A stretch of 64,000 nucleotides of DNA, from contig CAVUDT010000007.1 of assembly GCA_963740275.1 (NCBI GenBank), positions 124,103-188,102 on the forward strand, in the 5' to 3' direction. The stretch is from an uncultured Acidobacteriota bacterium (GTDB taxonomy: Bacteria > Acidobacteriota > Vicinamibacteria > Vicinamibacterales > 2-12-FULL-66-21). The notes beneath the pieces were generated by a model. That model ran no database searches and was not told the DNA's origin. It worked only from the letters and a program-made list of their open reading frames with translations. Made by a program: the position numbers and the translations under genes. Below are positions 10,819 through 24,718 of this stretch, in pieces; the first letter of the stretch is position 1; each line of letters begins with the position of its first letter.

Positions 10819-10922
10819 GCTGCCTCCTCAGGCACCTGGATGAAGTCGGAATATACGCCGTCGGTGCGGGAGTGACCAGCAAATTAGTCGCGCCACCCGG
10901 TGCCGGCGGATATGCTCTTCAC

Positions 10923-13127
10923 GTGCGTTACTTCGCCCTGATCACCCTCCTGCTCTCACCGCTTCTGGTCGCTCAGTCTCCAACACCCGCGGGGTTCGCG
11001 GGGAGCTCGGTGGAGGCGCAGGCACGGGCGGAAAAAACCTTCGTCGACACCGTGACACCCGCCTCGGCCCGGCGGTGGCTGGCGGCGCTCACCGAAGAAC
11101 CTCACGTCGCCGGCACGCCCGCGGAAAAGAAGGTCGCCGACTACGTGCTCGCACGCTTCAAGGAGTTCGGCCTGAACGCCGAGCTGGTGCACTACGACGT
11201 TTTCCTCAATCACCCGAAACAGGTTTCGCTGAAGCTGCTATCACCGGTTGAAGAAGAGCTGAAGCTCCGCGAGGATCCCTACGAGGTCGACAAGGACTCG
11301 ACCAGCGAGGGTATGTTCCCGGCGTTCCACGGCTACGGCGCGTCGGGGCGGGTCGAAGGGCAGGTCGTCTACGTGAACTACGGATCGCCGGCCGACTTCG
11401 CGCGCCTGGCGGCGCTGGGCATCTCGGTCGAAGGCAAGATCGCGCTGGTTCGCTACGGCGGCGCCTTCCGCGGGCTGAAGGTCAAGGAGGCGCAGGACCA
11501 CGGCGCGCTCGGCGCGCTCATCTACTCCGATCCGCGCGACGACGGCTACATGGCGGGCGAGGCGTATCCCGACGGGCCGATGCGCCCTCCGTCCGCGATT
11601 CAGCGGGGATCGGTGCTCTTCCTCTCGCACATGCCGGGCGATCCATCGACCCCGGGCTGGCCCTCGACCGCCGGGGCGAAGCGCGTGGCCCGCGCGCAGA
11701 TGGTCAACGTCCCGAAGATTCCCTCGCTGCCGATCGCCTATGCCGAAGCCGAGAAGATCCTCCGCCGGCTCGGCGGGCCGGTCGTGCCGGCCGAGTGGCA
11801 GGGCGGGCTGTCGTTCACCTACCACATCGGTCCCGGCGCCGCGCGCGTAGCGATGGACGTGCAGATGGACGAAGGGCTCAAGCCGATCTACAACGTCATC
11901 GCCACCATCCCGGGGAGCGTCGAACCCGACAAGAAGATTATCCTCGGCAACCATCGAGACGCCTGGACGCACGGCGCGGTCGATCCCAACTCCGGGACGG
12001 CGGCGCAGATCGAAGTCGCACGCGCGCTGGCGGCGGCGATGAAGACCGGCTGGCGGCCGAGGCGCACCATCGTCCTGGCGAGCTGGGACGCGGAAGAGTA
12101 CGGCCTCGTCGGCTCCACCGAATGGGCGGAAGAGCATGCCGCCGACCTGCAGAAGAATGCGATCGCGTACCTCAATGGCGACGCGGTCGTCACCGGGCCG
12201 GACCTCAACATGAGCGGCACGCCGTCGCTGCTGGCCGTCGCCATGGAGGTGGCTCGCGACGTTCCGGAGCCGCGGCGTGGCGGATCGATCGCCGCCGGAT
12301 GGGAGTCGCGTCAGCGCACCACCTGGGCGCAGCAGGCGCCGGTCGACATCAACGCCAGAGAGGACGCGAAGTTCTTCGCCCGCCTGGCCCCGCTCGGGTC
12401 AGGCTCCGACTACACGGTCTTCCTCGATCACCTGGGCGTTCCCTCGTTCGACTTCGGCTTCTCCGGCGGTTACGGCGTCTACCACTCCGTCTACGACAAT
12501 TTCCGATGGATGGAGAAGTACGGCGATCCGGAATTCCTCTATCACGCCACCGCCGCCAGGCTGTGGGGCGTGATGGCGATGCGCCTGGCCAATGCCGACG
12601 TCGTGCCGCTGCGGTATGCGACCTACGCGCGGGACCTGCAGCTGGATATGGACAACCTGCGACGCGACGTCATCCGTCGCTCCCGCGCGCCGGTGGCGGA
12701 GGGGAGCGATGCGAAACCGTCCATCACACCGGACTTCGCGCCGATCCAGGCGGGGCTCGAGGCCCTTCGCGTCGCCGGGGACGCTGCGGACCGCGCCGCC
12801 GACGCGGCGGTCAAGAGCGGCGATGCGGCCGCGATCCGCCGGGTGAACGAGGTGCTCAGCTCCGTCGAGCGCGCCCTGCTCGACCCGAAAGGCCTTCCCG
12901 GGCGGCCGTGGTTCCGCCACATGCTGATCGGACCGGGGCTCACGACCGGCTACGCGCCGTGGCCGTTCCCGGCGTTGCAGGAAGCCATGGACAACAAGGA
13001 TGCGGCGATGTTCGCCGCCGAGGCCGGCCGGGTGGTCGCCGCCCTCGCGGCCGCCACGGAGCGGCTCCGCTCGCTGACGAAAACTGAATCGGCCGGCTTT
13101 CAGTCTGATCGCACCCGTCCTCGATGA
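10923..13127 (+). CDS. M28 family peptidase (glutamate carboxypeptidase II/transferrin-receptor-like, PA domain)
   Basis: Signal peptide; PHVAGT; YVNYG; GNHRDAW; GAVDPNSGTA; SWDAEEYGLVGSTEWAE; GSGSDY; YHSVYD; GLPGRPWFRH. Confidence 0.92.
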   Translation: MRYFALITLLLSPLLVAQSPTPAGFAGSSVEAQARAEKTFVDTVTPASARRWLAALTEEPHVAGTPAEKKVADYVLARFKEFGLNAELVHYDVFLNHPKQVSLKLLSPVEEELKLREDPYEVDKDSTSEGMFPAFHGYGASGRVEGQVVYVNYGSPADFARLAALGISVEGKIALVRYGGAFRGLKVKEAQDHGALGALIYSDPRDDGYMAGEAYPDGPMRPPSAIQRGSVLFLSHMPGDPSTPGWPSTAGAKRVARAQMVNVPKIPSLPIAYAEAEKILRRLGGPVVPAEWQGGLSFTYHIGPGAARVAMDVQMDEGLKPIYNVIATIPGSVEPDKKIILGNHRDAWTHGAVDPNSGTAAQIEVARALAAAMKTGWRPRRTIVLASWDAEEYGLVGSTEWAEEHAADLQKNAIAYLNGDAVVTGPDLNMSGTPSLLAVAMEVARDVPEPRRGGSIAAGWESRQRTTWAQQAPVDINAREDAKFFARLAPLGSGSDYTVFLDHLGVPSFDFGFSGGYGVYHSVYDNFRWMEKYGDPEFLYHATAARLWGVMAMRLANADVVPLRYATYARDLQLDMDNLRRDVIRRSRAPVAEGSDAKPSITPDFAPIQAGLEALRVAGDAADRAADAAVKSGDAAAIRRVNEVLSSVERALLDPKGLPGRPWFRHMLIGPGLTTGYAPWPFPALQEAMDNKDAAMFAAEAGRVVAALAAATERLRSLTKTESAGFQSDRTRPR

Positions 13128-13274: not shown

Positions 13275-14447
13275 TCATCCGATCACCGTGAACCTGGACA
13301 GCGCGTCTTCCTTGATCGTCAACCCGAGGCCCGGCAGGTCGTCCCGCAGGTCGATCGAGCCGGCGGCGGGGGTGGGCTCGCCGTCGAAGATGTACCAGAA
13401 CAGCTCGTTGCCGACCTCGACGTCCACCGGCGGGAAGTACTCGGCTATCGGCGAGTTGAGGCTGGCCATCACGAGGTGGTAGTTGTGCATCTGGCCGGCG
13501 TGCGGCACCACCGGCACCGAGAAGGACTCGGCGAGTGCGGCGATCTTGCGCGCCTGGGTGATCCCGCCGACGCGGTTGGTGTCGAACTGGACGTAGTCGA
13601 GCGCCCTGGCCTCGAGCAGGTCGCGGAACTCGTAGACGGTGAAGCCGTGCTCCCCGCCGGCGATCGGGATCCGCCCCATCGCTTTGAGCGCCTGGTAACC
13701 GCCCGCATCGTCCGGGATGACCGCTTCCTCCAGCCAGCGGAGGTTGAACGGTTCGAGCAGCGGGATCATCCGGCGCGCATAGTCCAGCGTCCAGCCCATG
13801 TAAGCGTCGGCCATGATGTCGACCTCGTCACCGACCGTGTCGCGGACGGTGCGCACGAGCTCGACGTTGCGCTGCATACCGGCCGCGCCGTCGGTCGGCC
13901 CCCAGCCGAACCGCAGTTTCATGGCGGTGTATCCCTCGGCCTTGTACTTCGCCGCCTCCGCCGCCAGGGTGTCGAGCGGCTGGCTGTACAGGCGGCTCGC
14001 GTAGACCGGGATGCGCGGCTTGGTGCGCCCGCCGAGCAGCCGGAACACCGGCTGCCCGGCTGACTTGCCGAGCAGGTCCCAGAGCGCGATGTCGACCGCG
14101 CTGATCGCGACCATCCCGACCCCCTTGCGGCCGAACGCCATGGTGCGGCGGTACATGTGCTGCCACAGGAACTCGGTGTCCCAGGGGTCAGCGCCGATGA
14201 GCAGCGGTTTGAGATAGAGGTCGATTGCCTGCTTGGTCAACCGCGGCGCCAGCGCCGCGTTGCCGATGCCCACGTGGCCGCTGTCGGTGAACACTTCGAC
14301 GATCAGCCAGCCGTGGAAGCGGAAGCCGGCCATGGAATCGGCCGGCAGCGACAGCAAGTCCATCGCGTTCGTGCAGAAGTGGGGTTGCGGCGGGACGGTC
14401 GGTCCCTGCCACTCGACCACGCGGGTGCGAACGTCAGTGATCTTCAT
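13275..14447 (-). CDS. Enolase-superfamily (mandelate racemase subgroup) acid-sugar dehydratase, L-rhamnonate-dehydratase-like
   Basis: AISAVDIALWDL; KLR; IMADAYMGW; WLEEAV; AGGEH; QFDTNRVGGIT; VPHAG; PGLG. Confidence 0.85.
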   Translation of the reverse strand: MKITDVRTRVVEWQGPTVPPQPHFCTNAMDLLSLPADSMAGFRFHGWLIVEVFTDSGHVGIGNAALAPRLTKQAIDLYLKPLLIGADPWDTEFLWQHMYRRTMAFGRKGVGMVAISAVDIALWDLLGKSAGQPVFRLLGGRTKPRIPVYASRLYSQPLDTLAAEAAKYKAEGYTAMKLRFGWGPTDGAAGMQRNVELVRTVRDTVGDEVDIMADAYMGWTLDYARRMIPLLEPFNLRWLEEAVIPDDAGGYQALKAMGRIPIAGGEHGFTVYEFRDLLEARALDYVQFDTNRVGGITQARKIAALAESFSVPVVPHAGQMHNYHLVMASLNSPIAEYFPPVDVEVGNELFWYIFDGEPTPAAGSIDLRDDLPGLGLTIKEDALSRFTVIG

Positions 14448-14509
14448 GATGCGGATGTCAACGATGTCATGGTTGGACAGAATGATAGTGTGAGTGCGAG
14501 GTGTTGAAT

Positions 14510-15415
14510 ATGACTAGCGTGGCGGTCCTGGGTTTGGGGGTGATGGGTGGCGGCATGGCGCGCCGGCTCGCGGGCGCCGGATTTCCGCTGACGGTCTGGA
14601 ACCGCAGTCCCGAGCGGGCGCAGGCGCTCGAAGCCGAGGGGGCGGTGCGCGCGGCTACCCCACGCGAGGCCGCCGCCGGCGCGGACGTCATTCTCAGCAT
14701 GGTGGCGGATGACGACGCGTCGCGGGCGGTGTGGATCGGGCCCGACGGCGCACTGGCGGCGGCCCGCCCCGGCGCACTCCTGATCGAGTCGAGCACGCTC
14801 TCGCCTGCCTGGACCGAGCGACTCGCAGAGACCGCGATCGAGCGGGGCTGCCGCTTCCTCGAAGCGCCGGTCACGGGCAGCCGGGTGCAGGCGGCCGGTG
14901 GAGAGCTGCTGTTCCTGGCCGGCGGGGACGCTGCGACCGTCGAGGCCGCCCGCCCGCTGCTTGCCGTGCTCGGCCGCGATGTCGTCCACCTGGGTCCGGT
15001 CGGCAGCGGCGCCCGCATGAAGCTGATCAACAATTTTGTTTGCGGCGTGCAGGCGTCCGCGCTCGCCGAGGCGCTGGTCCTGATCGAACGCTGCGGCCTT
15101 TCGAAAGAGGCGGCGCTCGGCATCCTGCTCAACGGCGCACCCGGGAGCCCGCTGGTGAAGACGGTCGCGCCGCGCATGGCGACCCCCGACTACACCGTGT
15201 TTTTCGTGCTTGCGCTGATGCGGAAGGACCTCGCCTACGCCATCGCCGAAGGAGAGGCGAACGGCGTGCCGCTCACCACAGCCGTCGCGGCGCGACGCCT
15301 GTTCGAGGCAGCACAGAACGGCGGATGGGGGCAGGTCGATTTCGCTGCGGTGATCGAAGCGGTTCGCGCCGCCTCCACGAACCCGGTGCCTCAGCCGCCC
15401 GACCCCGGGCGCTAG
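14510..15415 (+). CDS. NAD(P)-dependent beta-hydroxyacid dehydrogenase (3-hydroxyisobutyrate/tartronate semialdehyde reductase family)
   Basis: GLGVMGGGMA; WNRS; ESSTLSP; FLEAPVTGS; GSGARMKLINN; KDL. Confidence 0.88.
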   Translation: MTSVAVLGLGVMGGGMARRLAGAGFPLTVWNRSPERAQALEAEGAVRAATPREAAAGADVILSMVADDDASRAVWIGPDGALAAARPGALLIESSTLSPAWTERLAETAIERGCRFLEAPVTGSRVQAAGGELLFLAGGDAATVEAARPLLAVLGRDVVHLGPVGSGARMKLINNFVCGVQASALAEALVLIERCGLSKEAALGILLNGAPGSPLVKTVAPRMATPDYTVFFVLALMRKDLAYAIAEGEANGVPLTTAVAARRLFEAAQNGGWGQVDFAAVIEAVRAASTNPVPQPPDPGR

Positions 15416-15532
15416 TCGCCCCGCCGGCGTGGCCGGCTCGAGCGAGACCACCCCTTCCCTCACCTCTGGTCACCAGCTCCTCTGGCCGTCCGGCCGGTCG
15501 TGCGGTGGATCAACAACGGCTTGATCGGCATA

Positions 15533-15595
15533 TCATAATACTGTATTAAGAAGCCAACCTTCGTCATACTGTACTAAGAGAAGCCGACCTTCGTC
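15533..15595 (+). promoter_or_regulatory. Duplicated putative FadR/GntR operator upstream of the TBDR operon
   Basis: Perfect palindrome TAATAC-T-GTATTA (15536-15548); direct repeat ATACTGTATTAAGAAGCCAACCTTCGTC (15538-15565) / ATACTGTACTAAGAGAAGCCGACCTTCGTC (15566-15595); AT-rich patch in GC-rich DNA. Confidence 0.6.
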
Positions 15596-15627
15596 CCATC
15601 AGCCCGCATCCACACAGGAGGATCGCC

Positions 15628-18600
15628 ATGCTCCGCGCCGCCGCTCGCCTCCGGTCAACACTGGTTCGCTGCTGCTTCCTCAGCCTGGTCCTCTGGCCCG
15701 CCGCAGCCGCCGGCCAGCAGCAGCTCGCCACGATCCAGGGCACCATCACCGACCAGACCGGCGCCGTCGTCCCCGGTGTGACCGTCACGGCGACCGGCCT
15801 GGACACCGGCGTCGCCAGAACCGCGATCTCCAACCAGGCGGGGGTCTACCGGTTGCCAAGCCTCGAGCCGGGACGTTACCGCGTGTCGGCCGAGTTGACC
15901 GGGTTCAACCGCGCGATCCGTGACAACGTGACCCTCGAAGTCGGCACCACTGTCGGCCTGCCGTTCGTCCTGCAGGCCGGCCAGGTGTCGGAGGAAGTCG
16001 AGGTTCGCGGAGCGGCGACCCTGGTGCAGACCGAGCGGGCCGACATCTCCTCGGTCGTCGAACGCAAACGGATCGAAAGCCTGCCGCTGGTCAGCCGGAA
16101 CCCGCTGGCGTTGACCGCGTTGACGCCTGGTGTCACCGGGATCCCGACGCGAAACGACTTCCTGCAGCCGGAGCAGGGTCTTGGCATCAGCGCGAGCGGC
16201 ATGCGCAGCGGCGCCAACAGCGCCTACATCGATGGCATGAGCATCAACGCCAATCCGCACGCGGGCACGGTACTGATCGTACCGAACGTCGAGGCCGTGC
16301 AGGAGTTCCAGGTCATCACCAACAATCCGTCGGCTGAGCACGGGCGCAACATCGGCGCTTCCGTGAACCTGGTGACCCGCCGCGGCACCAACCAGTTCAG
16401 CGGCTCGGTCTTCCAGTTCTACCGGAACGAGGCACTTCGGTCGAACAACGTCTTCGAAAAGGAGGCGGCAAACTTCCAGAAGCCGGACTTCAAGCGCAAT
16501 AACTTCGGCTTCAGCATCGGCGGTCCGGTGCGGCGCGACCATGCGTTCTTCTTCGGGTCGTACGAAGGGCTTCGCGAACAGACGGCCAGCGGGCAGTTGT
16601 ACACGGTGGAAACCGAGCAGTTCCGGGACTTCGTCCTGCAGACGCGTCCCAACTCCATCGCCGCGCAGCTGCTGCGGGAATTCCATCCCCGCGCGTATCC
16701 CACAACCGGGTTACGGGACCTTGGCAGCCCTGCACCCGGCGCCAATGTGTTCAGTGCGGTGCCCGACGGCATTCCGGATGTCGGCACCATCAACCTGGCG
16801 ATTCCCAGCCCCCGGGACGGGGATCAATTCAACGGCCGATACGACCAGGTGTTTCGCGGTGGCAAGGACCATCTGCGGTCCACCTACTACCTGTCGAACA
16901 TCTCGACCTGGTTCAACGATCTGCGCGAGACCTTCGACCGTCCGTATCCCCATCGGCTCCAGCTCTATACCGTCGCCCACTCACGCGTGATTTCGGATCA
17001 CACCCTGAATGAGCTGGCCTTCGGCTATGTCCGGATGCACGGTGAAGCGTCGGATCCAACCCCGCAGGTACCCACGATTACGATCACCGGCCTTCAGGCC
17101 GGTTTCGGGATCCTCAACTGGCAACCGATCGGATTCACGCAGAACTACTTCCAGATCAAGGACTCGCTGACGGCGACGAGAGGCCGGCACAGCCTCCGCC
17201 TCGGCGGCGAAGCGCGCGTGACGATGCAGTACCAGGATTTCCACCATTTCGAGCGTCCGAACTACGATTTCTCGAACCTTCTGGATTTCGCTGACGATGA
17301 ACCCTTCACCGAAACCCGCGGCGTCGATCCGAGCACGGGTCTGTCGCGCAGCACCGAAAACCGCTACCTCCAGACCGACTTCGCGGCGTTCCTCCAGGAC
17401 AACTGGAAGATTCGACCCAACCTGACCGCCAACCTCGGGCTCCGCTACGAGGTGTTCACGGCCCCGACACTGGCCGACCGGCCGTTCAATGCCATTCTTC
17501 TCGGACCCGGCGCGACCCGCCAGGAACAGGTGGCCAACGCCCGCAACGGCGCCGTCGACAGCCTGTATTCGACCGACTGGAACAACCTGGCGCCGCGTCT
17601 GGGCCTCACCTGGGATCCGACGAACAGCGGCACGATGGTCTTCCGGGGGGGCGCAGGCGTTTCCTACAATCGGATCAACAACACGGTCTGGACCGGCGAA
17701 TGGCAGAATCCACCGCACTTTGCCCAGGCATCGACACGCGCGGGAGATGCCATACCGATCGTCTACACCATGGGACCGGACTATCCGGAGAACCCAGGGC
17801 TCGGAAAGGGACTCGACGAGCGCGGTGGTCTTGTGGGGGCGCGGATCACGTTGACGGCGCTCGACCCTGATGTCGAAACGCCCTACGCCTACAACTGGTT
17901 CGCTGGCGTACAGCGACAGCTGCCGTGGAATTTCGTCGTCGATGTGAGCTACATCGGTACGGAAGGGCGCAACCTGATGAGCGTGGACGCCGGCGGTGGC
18001 GAAAACTACAACCGGTTCACCGGAGACCTGCTGGTGGGCGGTCTGGACCGCCTGAACCCCAGCTTTGCCTCGGTCAATCTCAACGAGAGCCGCATCTCGT
18101 CACACTATGACGGCCTGACGCTGGAACTGCGACGGCGCTACGAGCGGGGTTTCGCTTTCCAAGCCTCCTACACGCTGGGTAAAGCCACCGATACGGCGGG
18201 CGTGTGGGTGGACCTCAATCGCCGGGATCTGGAGGAGGGCCTTGCCGGGCACGACGTCCGGCATCGGCTGGCGATCAACTGGGTGATCGAGCTACCCGAC
18301 AATCTCGGTGGCCCTGTTCTGAAGTATGTGATCGGCGGCTGGCAGATCAGCACGATCACCGTATGGCAGACCGGATCACCGTTCGACGTCACCACGAGCG
18401 CCAACTACCCCAACGGCGACTACAATGCCGATGGCCAGAACAACGATCGCCCGAACCTCCCGAGCTTTGGCACCGACCTGGGCAGCCCTTCGCAGGAGGA
18501 ATGGCGGTCCGGCGTGTTCACCGCGGCTGATTTCCCGAAGCCCGCGCCCGGTACCGTCGGAAACCTGCCGCGCAATGGCTACACAGGGCCTGGCTATCTG

Positions 18601-18807
18601 AACACGGACTTGTCGCTGGTCAAGCGGTTCGCCATCCCGGCAATCGGTTCCGATGCCGGCCTGCAGCTGCGCCTGGAAGCGTACAATCTGTTCGACACGA
18701 TCAATCTGAACAATCCGGTGACTAACCTCACCAACATCAATTTCGGGCGGGTCACGTCCGCCAGACCGAGCCGCGAGATCCAGGTGGGTGTGAGGTTTAC
18801 GTTCTAA
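15628..18807 (+). CDS. TonB-dependent receptor (Oar-like, N-terminal carboxypeptidase-regulatory-like domain)
   Basis: SD AGGAGG; GTITDQTGAVVPGVTV; EAVQEFQV; FGFSIGGP; QDNWKI..NLTANLGLRYE; DWNNLAPRLG; C-terminal QVGVRFTF. Confidence 0.93.
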   Translation: MLRAAARLRSTLVRCCFLSLVLWPAAAAGQQQLATIQGTITDQTGAVVPGVTVTATGLDTGVARTAISNQAGVYRLPSLEPGRYRVSAELTGFNRAIRDNVTLEVGTTVGLPFVLQAGQVSEEVEVRGAATLVQTERADISSVVERKRIESLPLVSRNPLALTALTPGVTGIPTRNDFLQPEQGLGISASGMRSGANSAYIDGMSINANPHAGTVLIVPNVEAVQEFQVITNNPSAEHGRNIGASVNLVTRRGTNQFSGSVFQFYRNEALRSNNVFEKEAANFQKPDFKRNNFGFSIGGPVRRDHAFFFGSYEGLREQTASGQLYTVETEQFRDFVLQTRPNSIAAQLLREFHPRAYPTTGLRDLGSPAPGANVFSAVPDGIPDVGTINLAIPSPRDGDQFNGRYDQVFRGGKDHLRSTYYLSNISTWFNDLRETFDRPYPHRLQLYTVAHSRVISDHTLNELAFGYVRMHGEASDPTPQVPTITITGLQAGFGILNWQPIGFTQNYFQIKDSLTATRGRHSLRLGGEARVTMQYQDFHHFERPNYDFSNLLDFADDEPFTETRGVDPSTGLSRSTENRYLQTDFAAFLQDNWKIRPNLTANLGLRYEVFTAPTLADRPFNAILLGPGATRQEQVANARNGAVDSLYSTDWNNLAPRLGLTWDPTNSGTMVFRGGAGVSYNRINNTVWTGEWQNPPHFAQASTRAGDAIPIVYTMGPDYPENPGLGKGLDERGGLVGARITLTALDPDVETPYAYNWFAGVQRQLPWNFVVDVSYIGTEGRNLMSVDAGGGENYNRFTGDLLVGGLDRLNPSFASVNLNESRISSHYDGLTLELRRRYERGFAFQASYTLGKATDTAGVWVDLNRRDLEEGLAGHDVRHRLAINWVIELPDNLGGPVLKYVIGGWQISTITVWQTGSPFDVTTSANYPNGDYNADGQNNDRPNLPSFGTDLGSPSQEEWRSGVFTAADFPKPAPGTVGNLPRNGYTGPGYLNTDLSLVKRFAIPAIGSDAGLQLRLEAYNLFDTINLNNPVTNLTNINFGRVTSARPSREIQVGVRFTF

Positions 18808-18812
18808 CAGGC

Positions 18813-19592
18813 ATGTCGGAAACCCACTACCCGAGCCGCAATCTGCACGGCCAGATCGTTCACTCGATCGGCCGGCAGATACTGCAGGGTGATCTGCTGC
18901 CCGGCGAACCGATCCCGGCACAGCCGGACCTGCCCGCCAGCCGGACGGCGGTCCGCGAGGCGATCAAGGTCCTGGTGGCGAAGGGGCTGGTCGAAACGCG
19001 GCCGCGTACCGGCACCAGGGTGCGCGCGCGCGAAGCCTGGAACCTGCTCGACCCGGACGTGCTCGCCTGGGGGCACGACGGGTCGACCTCCAAGGAGCTG
19101 CTCCGCAGCATCACCGAGGTCCGCAGCATCGTCGAGCCGGCGGCGGCGGAACTGGCGGCCCGCCGCGCCACACCGGCCGACGTCGCCCAGCTCGAACAGG
19201 CGTTCCAGGCCATGGAAGCGGCCATGCCGGCCAGCGGCCCCGAAGACATCGGCGGGTTCGTGAAGGCCGACACGCGTTTTCACACCGCGATCTTCCGCGC
19301 TGCCGGCAACGATCTCCTCGAGCACATGAGCGCGGCGATCTACACCGCGCTTCGATTCAGCTTCGAAGCCACGAGCCGCATCCCCGGGAGCGCGCGGGCG
19401 TCGCTGCCCCACCACCGGGCAGTCAAGGATGCCATCCGGGGGCGGAAGCCGGCGGCCGCCGCGACCGCGATGCGATCGCTGGTCCGGCGTATCGCCCGCA
19501 AAGTCGACCGGATGCCGAAGGCCGGCGGCCGGGCGACCGCTGGCGCCGGCGCGGCGCCGCGGCTGGCGAAGCGACGCCAGGTGCGCCGATGA
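18813..19592 (+). CDS. FadR/GntR family transcriptional regulator (DgoR-like, FCD domain)
   Basis: SRTAVREAIKVLVAKGLVETRPRTGTRV; WNLLDPDVL; EVRSIVEP; ADTRFH; GNDLL. Confidence 0.92.
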   Translation: MSETHYPSRNLHGQIVHSIGRQILQGDLLPGEPIPAQPDLPASRTAVREAIKVLVAKGLVETRPRTGTRVRAREAWNLLDPDVLAWGHDGSTSKELLRSITEVRSIVEPAAAELAARRATPADVAQLEQAFQAMEAAMPASGPEDIGGFVKADTRFHTAIFRAAGNDLLEHMSAAIYTALRFSFEATSRIPGSARASLPHHRAVKDAIRGRKPAAAATAMRSLVRRIARKVDRMPKAGGRATAGAGAAPRLAKRRQVRR

Positions 19593-19636
19593 CTTTCCCC
19601 AACCGATGACCGACACCCCGGAGGAGATCTCGAGAC

Positions 19637-20551
19637 ATGCCCCGTAGCGCGCGAACCATCCTCGGCACGCTGAAACTTCCTGAAACGGACGCCCACGACC
19701 TTCCCGATTCGCGAAAGCGTTTCTCCGACGGCGGCCAATACCGGATCGAGATCCCGTCGGTCGAAGGGCCGCGCGCGATGGAGGCGGTGCTGTCGGCCGC
19801 CGACGAGCACGAAGTGGCGCTGCACCGGGTGAGCCAGGGCAGCGGGATCATGCTGCAGACGGACCGCGAGATCGAGCGCATGGTGGAGCTCGGGCGTCAG
19901 CGCGGCGTCGAAGTCTGTCTCTTCGTCGGGCCTCGAGCCAACTGGGATACCGGCGTCCAGGCGGCGAGCAGCGGCGGACGGGTCATCGGCTGCTCGCTCC
20001 GCGGCACCGACCAGCTGGTCTACGGCATCGAGGACGTGCTCCACGCCAACAGGCTCGGCATCAAGTCGGTGCTCGTCGCCGACGTCGGCCAGCTGATGGT
20101 GCTCGGCCGCATGAAGACGGCGGGTGACCTGCCGCCCGATTTCGTCCTGAAGATCTCGGTCACCCTGGCGGCCGCCAACCCGGCCACCGCCCGGGTGCTC
20201 GAAGACCTCGGCGCCACCTCGATCAACCTCCCGGTGGACCTGTCGCTGGCGCAGATCGCGGCGATCCGCCGGGCGGTGGATGCGGCGATCGATTTCTATG
20301 TCGAGAGCCCGGACGATCTCGGCGGGGTCGTGCGTCACTACGAGATCCCGGAGCTGGTGCGCGTCGCCGCCCCGATCTATCTGAAGTTCGGCGTGCGCAA
20401 TTCGCCGGGGCTCTACCCGAGCGGCTATCACCTCGAAGCCACGATCCTGGCGCTGTCGCGCGAGCGGGTCCGCCGCGCCGCGATCGGCCTCGGGCTGCTG
20501 CGGCGGTACGCACCGCACGCGGTCGCCTCGCCGACCGGGGTGAGCGTGTGA
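19637..20551 (+). CDS. U32-peptidase-like (probable TIM-barrel) protein of unknown function
   Basis: SD GAGGAG; YRIEIPSVEGP; RVSQGSG; SVLVADVG; NPATARVLEDLGATSIN; DFYVESPDD. GTGA overlap couples it to the aldehyde dehydrogenase. Confidence 0.65.
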   Translation: MPRSARTILGTLKLPETDAHDLPDSRKRFSDGGQYRIEIPSVEGPRAMEAVLSAADEHEVALHRVSQGSGIMLQTDREIERMVELGRQRGVEVCLFVGPRANWDTGVQAASSGGRVIGCSLRGTDQLVYGIEDVLHANRLGIKSVLVADVGQLMVLGRMKTAGDLPPDFVLKISVTLAAANPATARVLEDLGATSINLPVDLSLAQIAAIRRAVDAAIDFYVESPDDLGGVVRHYEIPELVRVAAPIYLKFGVRNSPGLYPSGYHLEATILALSRERVRRAAIGLGLLRRYAPHAVASPTGVSV

Positions 20552-22167
20552 CGACGCTGCGTGACATCGAGCTCACCGGTTCCAACCGGATCGGCGGACG
20601 TGAGTCGCGGGCGGGGGGTGGCACCTTCCGGTCGCAGGACCCTCGCAGCGGCGCCCCGGGTGATGTCGCGTTCGCGGAAGCGACCGCGGACGAGGTCGGC
20701 GTGGCGGCGGCGCTGGCCGGCGACACCTTCCGCAAGTGGCGCACCTCGCGTCCGGCGGATCGTGCGCGATTTCTCCGCGCCGCGGCGGCGGGCTTGCGCG
20801 AATCGCGCGAGCGCATCGTCTCGATCGCCAACGCCGAGACCGGCCTGGGGGACGCACGGCTGAACGGCGAGCTCGATCGCACCTGCGTCCAGCTCGAAGC
20901 CTTCGCCGAGCTGCTCGAAGACGGCTCCTACGTCGAGGCGATCATCTCGCTCGCTGACCCCCAGGCGAAGCCGGCACCCCGCCCCGACGTCCGCCGGATG
21001 CTCGTCCCGATCGGGCCGGTCGCGGTGTTCACCCCCAGCAACTTCCCGCTGGCGTTCGGCGTCGCCGGCGGCGACACCGCCTCGGCGCTGGCGGCCGGCT
21101 GTCCGGTAATCGTCAAGGGACATCCGGCACACGGCGGGACGTCGGAAGCCTGCGCCCGGGCGGTCGAAGCCGCGGCTGCCGCGACCGGCACACCCGCCGG
21201 CGTATTGTCACTCCTGCAGTCGCGTTCGGTCGAGACCGCGCAGGCCCTGGTCAGGGCGCCGGCGCTCGAAGCGATCGCATTCACGGGTTCGGAAACCGCC
21301 GGACGCGCGATTCACGATGTCGCCGCCTCCAGGCCGCGGCCGATCCCGGTCTACGCCGAGATGGGCAGCGTCAACCCGCTCTTCATCGGCAGTGCCGCAC
21401 TGGACGCGCGGGCGGCGGAAATCGCCGACGGGCTGGCCGGCTCGATCACGATGGGCACCGGCCAGTTCTGCACCAAGCCCGGCCTGGTGTTCGTGCCGGA
21501 CGATGAGCGGGGGCGCGCGTTCTCGCGGGAGCTTGCCGCGAGGGTCGCGGCTCGCCCCGCCGGATTCATGCTGTATCCGGGCCTCCACGCGACCCTGTCG
21601 GATCGCGTCGGCCGGATGACCGCGCTGCCCGGGGTCGCCCTCCTCACGCCCGGCGATGTCCCCGAGTCAGGGGCTGGCGGTGCCCTGGCGCGTCCAGGCG
21701 TCGTGGTCTCGACCGACGTCGCCACGTTTCTCGCCACGCCGGCTCTCTCGGAGGAGCATTTCGGTCCGGTGTCGGTGGTGGTGCACTGCGAGCCGGCACG
21801 GATGATCGACCTTGCCCGGCAGCTACACGGCAACCTGACCGCCACCATCCACGCCGAACCGGCGGAGCACGAGTGGGCCGCCACCCTCGCCGACGCGCTG
21901 GTCGAGCATGTCGGGCGCGTCGTCTGGAACGGCTACCCGACCGGCGTCGCCGTGACCCCAGGCATGTACCACGGCGGGCCCTACCCCGCGAGCACCGCCC
22001 CGGCCCACACATCGGTCGGCGTCACGGCGATCCGCCGCTTTCTCCGGCCGGTGGCGTTCCAGAACACCCCCGACGCGCTGCTGCCGGAGGCGCTGCAGGA
22101 CGCGAACCCGCTCGGTATCCAGCGGCAGCTGCACGGCGCCTGGACGCGGGAGCGGGCCGCACGTTAG
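20548..22167 (+). CDS. NADP-dependent aldehyde dehydrogenase, alpha-ketoglutaric semialdehyde dehydrogenase (KGSADH) type
   Basis: GELDRT; GPVAVF..SNFPLAF..AGGDTASALAAGCPVIVKGHPAH; FTGS; EMGSVNP; GQFCTKPG; EEHFGP; HGGPYPAST..TSVG..AIRRFLRPV. Confidence 0.9.
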   Translation: MTTLRDIELTGSNRIGGRESRAGGGTFRSQDPRSGAPGDVAFAEATADEVGVAAALAGDTFRKWRTSRPADRARFLRAAAAGLRESRERIVSIANAETGLGDARLNGELDRTCVQLEAFAELLEDGSYVEAIISLADPQAKPAPRPDVRRMLVPIGPVAVFTPSNFPLAFGVAGGDTASALAAGCPVIVKGHPAHGGTSEACARAVEAAAAATGTPAGVLSLLQSRSVETAQALVRAPALEAIAFTGSETAGRAIHDVAASRPRPIPVYAEMGSVNPLFIGSAALDARAAEIADGLAGSITMGTGQFCTKPGLVFVPDDERGRAFSRELAARVAARPAGFMLYPGLHATLSDRVGRMTALPGVALLTPGDVPESGAGGALARPGVVVSTDVATFLATPALSEEHFGPVSVVVHCEPARMIDLARQLHGNLTATIHAEPAEHEWAATLADALVEHVGRVVWNGYPTGVAVTPGMYHGGPYPASTAPAHTSVGVTAIRRFLRPVAFQNTPDALLPEALQDANPLGIQRQLHGAWTRERAAR

Positions 22168-22369: not shown

Positions 22370-24718
22370 CTAGAAGGTCGTCTGGATCCGCTTGCCGGCG
22401 TAGGTGATCTCTTTTTCCGTGCCGGCCGGAAGCAGCAGCAGCTTGAACACCCGCTTCCGGGCCACGTTGGTGGCTCCCTTTGGCCCGCCCGGCTCGATCG
22501 TGAGCTGCCTGGTGCGATCGTTCCACGCGATCCGCGTCCAGGTGCCTCTCGCCTTCAAGTAGTCCTGGCTCATCCCATCGTCTTCGTAGAGCGTGTAGTC
22601 GCCATCCGCGCCGCCGTAGATCCGCAGCGTCGTCGGCTCGGTCACCGGCTCGGTGGTGTACTGGCGGACCGGGTCGACCGGGATGATCGCGCCGGCGCGG
22701 ACGTAGATGGGCATGGTCGCGAGGTCGACGTCACGGTTGACGTTCTGGCCGCCGGCTGACTTGGCATTCGTCCACCAGTCGTACCAGTCACCCTTCGGGA
22801 GATAGACCTCGCGCGAGGTCGCCCCCTTGGTGAACACCGGGGCGATCAGCAGGTCCCGGCCCCACATGAACTGATTGCCGAGGGCACGCGCGCGCGTGTC
22901 GTCCGGATAGTGCAGCCACATGGCGCGCATCAGCGGCAGGCCGCTGTCGCGCGCCTCCCAGGCCAGCGTGTAGGTGTACGGCAGCAGCTGGTAGCGCAGC
23001 TCCGCATACTTCTTGGCCACCGGCTCGATCTTCGGATTGTTCAACTCCGACTCGAGGATGTTGCGGGGATGGTCGGGGCCTACCGGCGAGTTCGTGTTGT
23101 TGTTCTCCCGCGGCCCCATCTCGCTCAATCCCCAGCCCCACGGCAGGCGGGTCCACCAGTTTCGGCCATGGGAGCGGAACGAGCCGCAGAACGCGGCGAA
23201 CTGGAACCAGCGCGCATACAGCTCACCGGTCAGCTCGTTGTTTGGATAGAAGCCGCCGATATCCGATCCCCAGTAGGGGCCGATGCTGAGCGAGTAGTTG
23301 ATCCCGACTGCGATCTGCGCTTCGAGCGTCTTCCACGAGCTGTCGGTGTCGCCGGACCACACCCAGCCGCCCCACTGCGCGATCCCCGGATAACCGTTCC
23401 GCTGCAGGCTCCAGGGGCGGACGTTCGGCTGCGTCGACAGATGCCCCTGGTAATAGAGCTGGTGCCGCTTGATGCGTTCGAACAGGTTGAACCAGTCTCC
23501 TTCGTCGGGCCAGAACGCGTCGATGCCCGTCTTCACGAGCGGCACGTGCTCCTGCCAGTAGTTCTGAATGTGCGATGGGTCGAGCGTTTCGCCCGGCCGG
23601 GCCGGGATCGTTCCATGGAGCGTCGACAGACGGTCGCGGTCCCACGGGACCATGTGCACGACGACCTTCACGTTGTTGGCGTGCATGTCGGCGATCACCG
23701 CCTTGGGGTCGCGCTTGAACACCTCGGGGCTGAAGTCGAACGAGGGCTGTTTCGTATTCCAGCCTCGCGGGGCGAATCCGGTGCCGAGGTAGATCACCGC
23801 GTCGACCGGGATCTTCTTCTCGCGAAACGTCTTCACGATCCCGAGGATCTGCGCGTCGTCCTCGAGGGTGCGGTGCGACTGCATGTAGCCGAGCGCCCAC
23901 ACCGGCGGCATCGCGGCGGGGCCGGTGATCACCGAGAAGTCCTTCATCGCCCTGACGGGATCCTGGGCGTCGAAGATGAAGACGTCGTACAGGCCGGGGA
24001 TCACCACCTCGGGGGGCGGCAACCCCTTCGCCAGCGCCTGCTGCTGATTGCGCTCGTTCTGCGGCAGGCGGTCCGCATCGGTCGGCTTCCACGGCAGATA
24101 GATGCCGCGGTCGGCGTTCCGCAGGTCGATCTGGCCCCACGGGGCGGCCACGAACATGCCCCAGCCGCCGGTCCCGAGCAGCATCGCGGCCGGGTTGCGC
24201 GAGCCGTACATGTCGGCCTGCCAGCGCGGCTGCATCGTGTCCAGCTGGCCGCGCCGATCGAACTGCACGGTGTGTTCGCGCCAGTTTGCGCCGCGGCCCG
24301 GCAGCGGGCCGCCTTCACCCATCCCGAGCACCGGGGCATCGTCCAGCTTGAACGAGACGTTGCCGTCGGCTTCGAAGACAAGCTCCTGGACGACGCGGCC
24401 GTTGCTGCTCTTGACACTCACCGTGAGCGGATTCGGCCGCACGTCGACCGTCAGACCGCCGACCTTTCGCTGCACCGGCCCGGTGAGCTCACGCAGGCTG
24501 AGGGCAGGAGCCGGGTACTGGCGGAGCGCGATCGCGGGATTGACCGGAAAGTCCTCCTTGAAGGTGACCGGCTTGAGCGTGACGCGGATGCTCCGCTCGC
24601 CGGCCGCGCGCACGTCGAGCTGGGCGGGCTGTCCGGCGGCCGTGATCTGCTGTGCATCGGCGGCCGCTGGGCCGGTCAGCAAAGCGATGAGAAAAAGGAC
24701 TCGTTGAACTCTACGCAT
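22370..24718 (-). CDS. Glycoside hydrolase family 31 (alpha-glucosidase/xylosidase), secreted
   Basis: Signal peptide; PPVWALGYMQS; IPVDAVIY; FWPDEGD; WSGD; GSDIGGF; ELYARWFQ; RYQLLPYTY; QFMWGRDLLIAP; LYEDDG. Confidence 0.92.
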   Translation of the reverse strand: MRRVQRVLFLIALLTGPAAADAQQITAAGQPAQLDVRAAGERSIRVTLKPVTFKEDFPVNPAIALRQYPAPALSLRELTGPVQRKVGGLTVDVRPNPLTVSVKSSNGRVVQELVFEADGNVSFKLDDAPVLGMGEGGPLPGRGANWREHTVQFDRRGQLDTMQPRWQADMYGSRNPAAMLLGTGGWGMFVAAPWGQIDLRNADRGIYLPWKPTDADRLPQNERNQQQALAKGLPPPEVVIPGLYDVFIFDAQDPVRAMKDFSVITGPAAMPPVWALGYMQSHRTLEDDAQILGIVKTFREKKIPVDAVIYLGTGFAPRGWNTKQPSFDFSPEVFKRDPKAVIADMHANNVKVVVHMVPWDRDRLSTLHGTIPARPGETLDPSHIQNYWQEHVPLVKTGIDAFWPDEGDWFNLFERIKRHQLYYQGHLSTQPNVRPWSLQRNGYPGIAQWGGWVWSGDTDSSWKTLEAQIAVGINYSLSIGPYWGSDIGGFYPNNELTGELYARWFQFAAFCGSFRSHGRNWWTRLPWGWGLSEMGPRENNNTNSPVGPDHPRNILESELNNPKIEPVAKKYAELRYQLLPYTYTLAWEARDSGLPLMRAMWLHYPDDTRARALGNQFMWGRDLLIAPVFTKGATSREVYLPKGDWYDWWTNAKSAGGQNVNRDVDLATMPIYVRAGAIIPVDPVRQYTTEPVTEPTTLRIYGGADGDYTLYEDDGMSQDYLKARGTWTRIAWNDRTRQLTIEPGGPKGATNVARKRVFKLLLLPAGTEKEITYAGKRIQTTF

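Follow-up and report, generated by a model that had tools for sequence, protein, structure and literature searches.

This analysis concerns a locus in a 64,000-nucleotide stretch of DNA (the window) from an uncultured Acidobacteriota bacterium of the order Vicinamibacterales (assembly GCA_963740275.1, contig CAVUDT010000007.1), and above all one of its genes, which encodes a cysteine-poor, U32-like protein of 304 amino acids. We refer to this protein as P0001, to the source genome as G000, to the contig carrying the window as C7, and to individual loci by L-numbers. A preliminary description had reported six genes in this region, and Pfam and NCBIfam scans returned all six at the same positions and with the families it had described. 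These genes and the features around them are as follows.

13275..14447, minus strand: enolase-superfamily dehydratase of the L-lyxonate dehydratase (LyxD) type (Pfam MR_MLE_N and MR_MLE_C)
14501..15415, plus strand: beta-hydroxyacid dehydrogenase resembling 3-hydroxyisobutyrate dehydrogenase (HIBADH) and tartronate-semialdehyde reductase (Pfam NAD_binding_2 and NAD_binding_11), divergent from LyxD
15510-15539, plus strand: promoter-like site from a promoter scan, 5' of the receptor gene, in the AT-rich region 15510..15595
15540-15565 (26 nt) and 15568-15595 (28 nt), plus strand: two imperfect tandem repeats read from the sequence, a possible operator
15628..18807, plus strand: TonB-dependent outer-membrane receptor (TBDR), gene 1 of the operon (OMP_b-brl_4, 509 bits; CarboxypepD_reg; Plug)
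18813..19592, plus strand: GntR/FCD (FadR-type) transcriptional regulator (Pfam GntR and FCD)
19637..20551, plus strand: Cys-poor U32-like (beta/alpha)8-barrel protein P0001, 304 amino acids (partial match to PF01136; AlphaFold2 model)
20548..22167, plus strand: aldehyde dehydrogenase (ALDH) of the 'ALDH (NADP+)' clade, probable alpha-ketoglutarate semialdehyde dehydrogenase (KGSADH) (Pfam Aldedh)
22389..22406, plus strand: terminator-like hairpin with a T-run from a consensus scan, 3' of the ALDH gene and within the 3' end of a convergent GH31 gene

The TBDR, GntR, U32-like and ALDH genes are co-directional, with spacings of 5, 44 and -4 nt, and GGAGGAG precedes the ATG of the U32-like gene at 19637. 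The GTGA overlap that had been claimed for the last two genes is real, the ALDH gene starting with GTG at 20548 and the U32-like gene stopping with TGA at 20549-20551. The locus was also said to be free of fumarylacetoacetate hydrolase (FAH) and dihydrodipicolinate synthase (DHDPS) family genes, and this held for the window as a whole, which contains no FAH, GguC or DHDPS gene; the one PF01557 match and the three PF00701 matches of G000 all lie elsewhere. Searching G000, which is 95.9% complete, with NF040903 (GguC/AraD1) gave no match.

The sole Pfam match of P0001 is to Peptidase_U32 (PF01136; 34.1 bits, cut-off 22.4), and it is partial, covering residues 136-222 and profile positions 10-90 of 233; homologues from Thermomicrobium roseum and Nonomuraea have no Pfam match at E <= 1e-6. 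P0001 has no match in NCBIfam, and none to FAH, GguC/NF040903 or PF00701 models in Pfam or NCBIfam. The U32 proteins UbiU/UbiV, RlhA and TrhP bind a 4Fe-4S cluster through four conserved cysteines. P0001 contains exactly two, C94 and C119, and neither is conserved, as the preliminary description of a Cys-poor protein would lead one to expect: in a family alignment of 38 sequences (31-91% identity) cysteine occurs in at most 10 of the 38 sequences in any column, and 3 of the 38 are free of it. Judged by its sequence, P0001 lacks the four-Cys Fe-S feature of the PF01136 hydroxylases. The family differs from UbiU/UbiV, RlhA and TrhP both in having no conserved cysteine and in its genomic context, which is sugar-acid catabolism and not RNA or quinone hydroxylation.

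Structure prediction, proposed earlier as a check, gave a confident Cys-poor TIM barrel: the AlphaFold2 model, computed from the alignment, has a pLDDT of 94.3, a pTM of 0.92 and eight strand-helix units. Six residues that are invariant or at least 90% conserved in the family alignment, E38, D149, K172, N197, D219 and K250, sit in the model at the C-terminal ends of strands 1, 4, 5, 6, 7 and 8, respectively. In TIM barrels the C-terminal strand ends form the usual catalytic face. Among these residues E38, D149 and D219 are candidate metal ligands, and K172 and K250 are candidate acid/base groups.

Searching with the model by Foldseek, the best matches were class II aldolases (1rvg, 6ofu, which is YdjI, and 1gvf; E 3e-8 to 3e-7, TM ~0.5), with the U32 protein Mk0906 (5d88; E 8.9e-8) in rank 2. 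An exhaustive fold search ordered the matches differently, the scores falling without a break from CutC at the top (Z 15.9) through Mk0906 (Z 15.1) to MJ1099, RuBisCO-like proteins and then class II aldolases (Z about 14). The three CutC structures 1twd, 4r9x and 2bdq reached Z 15.9, 15.8 and 14.6 over ~200 residues, at only 12-14% identity and with no match at the sequence level; Mk0906 shares the same TIM barrel (rmsd 2.9, 185 residues), with other barrels within 1-2 Z units of it. The class II aldolases (fructose-bisphosphate, tagatose-bisphosphate, YdjI and sulfofructose-phosphate) had Z scores of 13.5-14.3 in the exhaustive search, at 10-19% identity to P0001. They are metal-dependent lyases acting on carbonyl sugars, but their substrates are phosphorylated ketoses, and no conserved kinase stands beside the U32-like gene. 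Since CutC has, to our knowledge, no established enzymatic function, the likeness to it is uninformative on mechanism. As modelled, the fold of P0001 does not name its reaction; what it does indicate is that P0001 is a remote, cluster-less relative of the U32/CutC TIM barrels.

Sequence-level comparisons added little to this picture. Comparing the P0001 family profile with E. coli UbiV gave no alignment, and with E. coli UbiU gave a weak one (151 columns, probability 25%), too weak for mapping the Fe-S cysteines. The sole match of P0001 in a sequence search of solved structures, L-galactose dehydrogenase at E 0.089, was taken as chance, and the ESM Atlas returned nothing beyond its own unnamed U32-like clusters. 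The family itself is large, with at least 7996 clusters at 90% identity (of 8000 scored candidates); at 50% clustering, 1099 representatives have E <= 1e-3 and 180 have E <= 1e-30. Its members are named in the databases just as 'hypothetical' or 'U32 family peptidase'. A few longer entries look like fusions, or like merged gene calls, that add an SDR, lactonase, IlvD/EDD, enolase, ALDH, PfkB or RraA-like domain. One database protein of 490 amino acids, P0002, is 99% identical to P0001 and additionally carries NAD_binding_11; it could be a merged gene call or come from a rearranged locus in a near-identical genome.

We then turn to the genomic context of the relatives, using the best 80 of 159 relatives' loci in species-representative genomes, which come from Acidobacteriota (Vicinamibacterales, Bryobacterales and Terriglobia), Thermomicrobiales and Streptosporangiaceae. 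Genes were called with a GC3-based script, the neighbours were clustered and cluster representatives were scanned in Pfam and NCBIfam; labelled neighbours were counted within 5 kb (tblastn, E <= 1e-10, at least 45% coverage). A sugar or sugar-acid neighbour is present in 51 of the 80 loci. The most frequent labels are ALDH (24/80, directly adjacent in 16), galactose mutarotase (23/80), thrB (23/80), lactonase (22/80), parts of ABC transporters (20/80), short-chain dehydrogenase/reductase (SDR; 20/80), enolase (19/80, adjacent in 12) and GH127 (8/80). GguC, FAH and DHDPS genes were found beside the U32-like gene in 0/80, and phmmer searches with the FAH protein and the three DHDPS proteins of G000 against the 3432 open reading frames (>=100 aa) of these loci gave no match; as a control, the DHDPS paralogues of G000 cross-detect at ~1e-28. 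The same type of context is seen on two further replicons, the T. roseum megaplasmid (genes for IclR, a binding protein, an ATPase, an enolase, an MBL hydrolase, a permease and the U32-like protein, TRD_RS11835 / WP_012642555.1) and Streptomyces nigrescens SNP1 (lactonase, IclR, enolase, U32-like and ABC transporter genes). Sugar-acid neighbourhoods of the homologues, which the preliminary description had put forward as a test, are what we found, and we regard the link of the U32-like family to sugar-acid catabolism, across several phyla, as well supported.

In the 28 loci whose U32-like protein is at least 70% identical to P0001 an operon recurs that comprises a divergent mutarotase gene, GntR, SDR and U32-like genes, sometimes an ALDH of the window type, a DgoD-like enolase, an SMP-30 lactonase and an ABC transporter. 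With 234 bits its SDR exceeds the cut-off of 215 set for the NCBIfam subfamily 'glucose 1-dehydrogenase', and its enolase scores 262 bits with the galactonate dehydratase model, under the cut-off of 311. In L001, L002, L013, L014, L018, L019, L020 and L022, which are of the Vicinamibacterales type, the U32-like gene is preceded by an orthologue of the GntR regulator (51-60% identity), and the 4-nt overlap of the U32-like and ALDH genes recurs in L012, L013 and L018. In loci such as L012, L013, L025, L135 and L136 the gene for every step of a Weimberg pathway is recognisable except that for the 2-keto-3-deoxy-pentonate (KDP) dehydratase, and the U32-like gene is the sole unassigned gene.

The context changes with distance from P0001: around members of 33-50% identity the neighbours are of other kinds, such as creatininase-family, LarA-like and Ldh_2 genes or a biosynthetic cluster, from which we conclude that proteins of this fold have come to differ in function. 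In L109 (8162-8920), L110 (9906-10892) and L111 (4937-5947), with 40-49% identity, the U32-like gene is accompanied by a creatininase-family gene and IclR, and in L110 also by LarA-like, Ldh_2 and cupin genes; these creatininase-paired members probably catalyse a different reaction. A copy of 33% identity (L087, Enterobacter chuandaensis plasmid NZ_CP097174.1, 81015-81953) is part of a cluster of ten genes that also encodes a phosphotransferase and an aminotransferase, as well as iron-containing redox enzymes, an M14 peptidase and an MFS transporter, and that looks like a cluster for small-molecule biosynthesis. A GHMP kinase neighbour, considered as a hint of a phosphorylated substrate, was rejected as such when it proved to be the homoserine kinase ThrB (241 bits against 168). 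thrB is called immediately upstream of the U32-like gene in 15 loci (for example L033:7090-8001) of Bryobacterales and Terriglobia, sometimes near tsf, pyrH and frr, and we read the pairing as lineage synteny with a housekeeping gene, not as a pathway link.

The partners of P0001 in the window bear on what it might act upon. The closest solved relatives of the divergent enolase are 3ssz, 3sqs and 3stp, which match over the full length at E 1e-154 to 1e-160, and the enolase carries K177-L-R179 (a KxR motif), D289 and H316. The PDB title of 3stp is 'galactonate dehydratase, putative'; we take it to be the L-lyxonate dehydratase of Labrenzia. Catalysis by LyxD reportedly depends on a His-Asp dyad and on a KxR motif where strand 2 ends, with R179 and H316 as essential residues. 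Growth of P. aeruginosa on L-lyxonate is attributed to Ghasempur 2014 in the part of PMC6336799 available to us. The product of the window enolase would be 2-keto-3-deoxy-L-pentonate (L-KDP).

The role of the dehydrogenase divergent from LyxD is less evident, every NCBIfam match of the protein being under cut-off. Its orthologues (52-57% identity) stand alongside LyxD in all four genomes of one genus, f38 (L101, L102, L104 and L106), and a HIBADH-type dehydrogenase accordingly accompanies LyxD in two separate lineages. We know of no step in the published L-lyxonate route that requires it.

The ALDH matches the structures 3v4c and 1eyy (E 1e-116 to 1e-118), and the label KGSADH given to it earlier was an inference. 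Its best scores with the NCBIfam KGSADH equivalog models are far under the cut-offs (95 bits against 750, and 88 against 770), but the genomic context of its relatives supports the label. A relative of 46-47% identity lies in an Azospirillum brasilense plasmid cluster with an SMP-30 lactonase and a DHDPS-family protein, and another, equally similar, lies in Granulicella tundricola with GH127 genes, a proline-racemase-family gene, FAD oxidoreductases and a DHDPS-family gene. The Granulicella cluster is a hydroxyproline route, and both clusters form alpha-ketoglutarate semialdehyde (KGSA). Because its closest annotated relatives lie in two KGSA-forming clusters, we accept the window ALDH as a probable KGSADH of a divergent clade. 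Among the 16 ALDHs directly adjacent to a U32-like gene, 7 are of this clade and 9 belong to an unrelated, classic clade, whose best NCBIfam scores are with two KGSADH models, GucD (634 bits) and 2,5-dioxovalerate dehydrogenase (606 bits), the next being 444 and all under cut-off. In the nine Terriglobia loci the classic ALDH gene immediately precedes the U32-like gene and has its orientation, often beside ribulokinase, L-ribulose-5-phosphate 4-epimerase and SSF transporter genes. Both adjacent ALDH clades are KGSADH-like.

A further line of evidence comes from the genomes that encode LyxD. In a sample of 401 genomes of the window's phylum, LyxD orthologues (74-78% identity) are present in seven genomes besides G000. 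All seven carry GguC/AraD1 (NF040903, 414-449 bits, cut-off 340), adjoining LyxD in four and elsewhere in three, and the U32-like gene was not found in any of them; G000 is the reverse, lacking GguC and carrying the U32-like gene. The LyxD cluster of the four f38 genomes runs GntR, TBDR, GH39, MFS, LyxD, a 337-aa gene and the HIBADH orthologue, with an ALDH in one, so that a TBDR and a GntR regulator accompany LyxD there too. The 337-aa gene was tried as a relative of the U32-like gene, without any similarity to the U32-like profile; it is GguC/AraD1 by NCBIfam and has no Pfam match even at E <= 1. Such GguC/AraD1 genes (L102:10214-11227 and L104:10252-11268) are invisible to Pfam, so FAH scans made with Pfam only miss this class of KDP dehydratase. 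COG3970-type proteins dehydrate both D- and L-KDP to KGSA in experiments described in the accessible part of Watanabe 2019 (PMC6336799). Across the whole sample, 9 genomes carry the U32-like gene, 12 carry GguC (over the cut-off) and none carries both, a zero overlap that with such small numbers is by itself expected by chance. The telling point is not this bare non-overlap but the pattern in the LyxD genomes, each of the eight having exactly one of the two genes, with the limit that the eight represent only ~3 independent lineages.

Taking these results together we propose, with a little less than even confidence, that P0001 is a divalent-metal-dependent KDP dehydratase, the substrate, the cleavage of a C-O and not a C-C bond, and the use of a metal being what we infer. 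The TBDR would take up L-lyxonate or a related acid sugar, the LyxD-type enolase would convert the acid sugar to 2-keto-3-deoxy-L-pentonate, P0001 would remove the C4 hydroxyl to give KGSA, the translationally coupled ALDH would oxidise KGSA to 2-oxoglutarate, and the GntR/FCD protein would regulate the operon. In related soil bacteria the GntR/U32-like/ALDH cassette is part of an oxidative operon of the L-arabinose or D-galactose type, whose other genes encode a mutarotase, an SDR aldose dehydrogenase, a lactonase, a DgoD-like enolase and an ABC transporter.

How such an enzyme would relate to the established ones can be stated in outline. The FAH-type KDP dehydratases (GguC/AraD1 of NF040903, COG3970, C785_RS13680 and KdaD of Sulfolobus) share with P0001 the proposed reaction and the place in LyxD or pentose clusters, but they have an unrelated fold and no sequence similarity to it was found. 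Their mechanism, as given in the 2022 review PMC9795676, uses Mg2+ together with Glu/Lys acid-base catalysis, and the conserved acidic and lysine residues of P0001 could fill these roles. AraD/AbLPDHT of A. brasilense, of the DHDPS/N-acetylneuraminate lyase (NAL) family, is like P0001 a (beta/alpha)8 barrel encoded directly upstream of a KGSADH of the same clade. This L-KDP dehydratase is described in the available text of PMC9795676 as using a Schiff-base lysine on strand 6, whereas P0001 has its conserved lysines on strands 5 (K172) and 8 (K250); no DHDPS-family protein is among the fold matches listed for P0001.

Several observations speak against dehydration by P0001, and we set them out here with the readings that they favour. 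To begin with, all the fold matches are generic TIM barrels with no family standing clear of the rest, and the best by Foldseek are aldolases, not dehydratases. An aldolase would cleave KDP or 2-keto-3-deoxygalactonate (KDGal) into pyruvate and glycolaldehyde or glyceraldehyde, with the ALDH oxidising the small aldehyde, as in a Dahms or a non-phosphorylative Entner-Doudoroff/DeLey-Doudoroff pathway, and would fit both C5 and C6 substrates; we consider this unlikely, yet it is the likeliest of the alternatives. The top Foldseek matches of P0001 include YdjI, which has Z 14.1 in the exhaustive search, but the matches are generic and, when ordered by Z, the aldolases come after both CutC and U32. 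The ALDH is missing from 19 of the 28 loci at >=70% identity, and in five out of five genomes whose U32-like operon has no adjacent ALDH we found no ALDH of the window type at E <= 1e-60; the best GucD-model scores in these five are 406-511 bits, with no clear KGSADH visible. The enolase of the recurrent operon is DgoD-like, and its orthologues, present in 15 genomes, were followed in 10 loci (the query's own genome, G401, which is L001, and three on short contigs having been left out): the U32-like gene is adjacent in 8 of the 10, one has none, and one, L137, has instead a PfkB kinase, with IclR and TBDR, beside an enolase orthologue of 77% identity. This pairing suggests a hexonate substrate, to which dehydration to KGSA does not apply. 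A trio of zinc-dependent alcohol dehydrogenase (Zn-ADH), U32-like and enolase genes, free of ALDH, occurs in L131 and in the same order in L133 and L134, and resembles archaeal trios of dehydrogenase, dehydratase and aldolase. The lack of a clear KGSADH, the PfkB pairing and these minimal trios keep the aldolase reading alive. What lowers it is that both adjacent ALDH clades are KGSADH-like and not glycolaldehyde, lactaldehyde or glyceraldehyde dehydrogenases, that the P0001 gene alternates with GguC, a dehydratase, in the LyxD genomes, and that no glycolate-oxidase, malate-synthase or glycerate-kinase gene is found among the conserved neighbour clusters. On the earlier suggestion of a non-Fe-S TIM-barrel dehydratase or aldolase, then, the Cys-poor barrel stands and the reaction stays divided, dehydration having somewhat under an even chance and aldol cleavage a clearly smaller one.

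The remaining observations concern a gene outside the window. The preliminary description had named a co-regulated FAH- or DHDPS-family dehydratase elsewhere in the genome as a finding that would tell against it, and a DHDPS-family gene of G000 answers to this in part. G000 holds three DHDPS-family genes and one FAH gene; the first DHDPS gene is dapA, with dapB and dapD, the second is found near GNAT and M48 genes, and the neighbours of the FAH gene are transaldolase and hslUV. The third DHDPS gene, at C7:239905-240771, is separated from the locus by 94 kb and lies ~52 kb past the window end; it is 36.6% identical to the Azospirillum DHDPS-family gene beside the ALDH, and both encode Gln in place of the aldolase Tyr (VVQDYP and MIQDAP), a substitution that the part of PMC9795676 open to us describes for the A. 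brasilense L-KDP dehydratase. From its sequence, this paralogue could be the real dehydratase supplying the step, and it has orthologues in five out of five tested genomes with a U32-like operon. P0001 would then have an accessory role, as an isomerase, an epimerase, a lactone- or ring-opening enzyme or a KGSA/KDP tautomerase, which we hold to be improbable. The different contexts of the distant subfamilies (38-50%, and 33% for the Enterobacter copy), the functional versatility of the fold, and the 29 of 80 loci without any sugar-linked neighbour, 23 of the 80 being by thrB, are in keeping with such a role. However, in a class sample of 301 genomes the paralogue is present in 102: of the 15 genomes that have the enolase of the recurrent operon 11 carry it, and of the remaining 286 genomes 91 do, so that it occurs without the operon and was not found in 4 of the 15; it belongs to a unit of three minus-strand genes (L085:5193-7872), the other two being for an SDR and a proline-dehydrogenase-like protein, with peptidase genes and no sugar genes around them; and an accessory role leaves unexplained both the complementarity with GguC and the tight coupling to a KGSADH-like ALDH. 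Least probable of all, and in our view very improbable, is hydrolysis of a C-C bond as in Route III, documented in the accessible text of Watanabe 2019 (PMC6336799), where an SDR would oxidise the 2-keto-3-deoxy acid at C4 and P0001, replacing the FAH-type hydrolase, would split the 2,4-diketo-3-deoxy acid into pyruvate and glycolate or lactate. The SDR neighbours, immediately upstream in 10 loci, agree with this, as do the database proteins P0271 and P0272, which read as SDR/U32-like fusions; a further AKR or GFO/IDH/MocA dehydrogenase in some loci could be the aldose dehydrogenase, and a route that needs no ALDH fits the ALDH-less operons. But the score of the SDR with the glucose 1-dehydrogenase model points to an aldose 1-dehydrogenase, each of the fusion proteins is a single entry and possibly a merged gene call, the operon in the window has a coupled ALDH and no SDR, and a route that makes no aldehyde leaves the 16 ALDH adjacencies unexplained.

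Some features of the window surround the operon without bearing on the reaction. The promoter scan of the window returned 1 site against 0.7 expected in shuffles, which alone is not significant, and the terminator consensus scan returned 2 sites against 4.7 expected, which is weak. The tandem repeats have the consensus ACTGTAyTAAGA..GCCrACCTTCGTC and lie in an AT-rich stretch, directly 5' of the TBDR gene, that overlaps the promoter-like site; going by their sequence and position, the GntR/FCD regulator might use them as its operator. Inspection by eye of the LyxD/HIBADH intergenic region and the region upstream of the TBDR gene showed no common operator motif. The locus is flanked on one side, at 10872-13127, by a gene for an M28 peptidase that has a PA domain and a transferrin-receptor-like dimerisation domain, and on the other, at 22370-24718, by the convergent GH31 glycosidase gene; in L135 and L136, too, the U32-like operon is flanked by GH31 genes (39-41% identity).

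Returning to the KDP dehydratase reading, its interest lies in the small number of known solutions for this step. Only the FAH and DHDPS/NAL families are described for the conversion of KDP to KGSA in the portions of PMC9795676 and Watanabe 2019 (PMC6336799) at our disposal. Our literature searches returned no paper linking U32 to lyxonate, to a 2-keto-3-deoxy dehydratase or to the Weimberg pathway, and the term 'U32' does not occur in the part of PMC9795676 that was accessible. What is new here is the complementarity of GguC and the U32-like gene in LyxD genomes, the support from genomic context for the ALDH as a KGSADH, and the DHDPS paralogue as a concrete rival. We suggest, again at slightly below even confidence, that a third, independent family of KDP dehydratases arose from the U32/CutC barrel by loss of the Fe-S cluster and use of a metal with Lys/Glu, and that it closes a Weimberg-type L-arabinose/L-lyxonate route in Acidobacteriota, Thermomicrobia and Actinomycetota as a mobile GntR/U32-like/KGSADH cassette replacing GguC. 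If this is true, the finding would add a third enzyme family for the KDP step and fill an annotation gap, since genes of this family, in their thousands, are at present called 'U32 family peptidase' or 'hypothetical', and it would offer an extra candidate enzyme for engineered Weimberg pathways. The question is directly testable, since the carriers include the cultured T. roseum DSM 5159 and S. nigrescens. For the protein family, it would mean that the scaffold of prephenate-dependent Fe-S hydroxylases has been re-used for cluster-free lyase chemistry, and for the organisms that carry it, it would correct the pathway reconstructions of abundant and poorly cultured soil Acidobacteriota.

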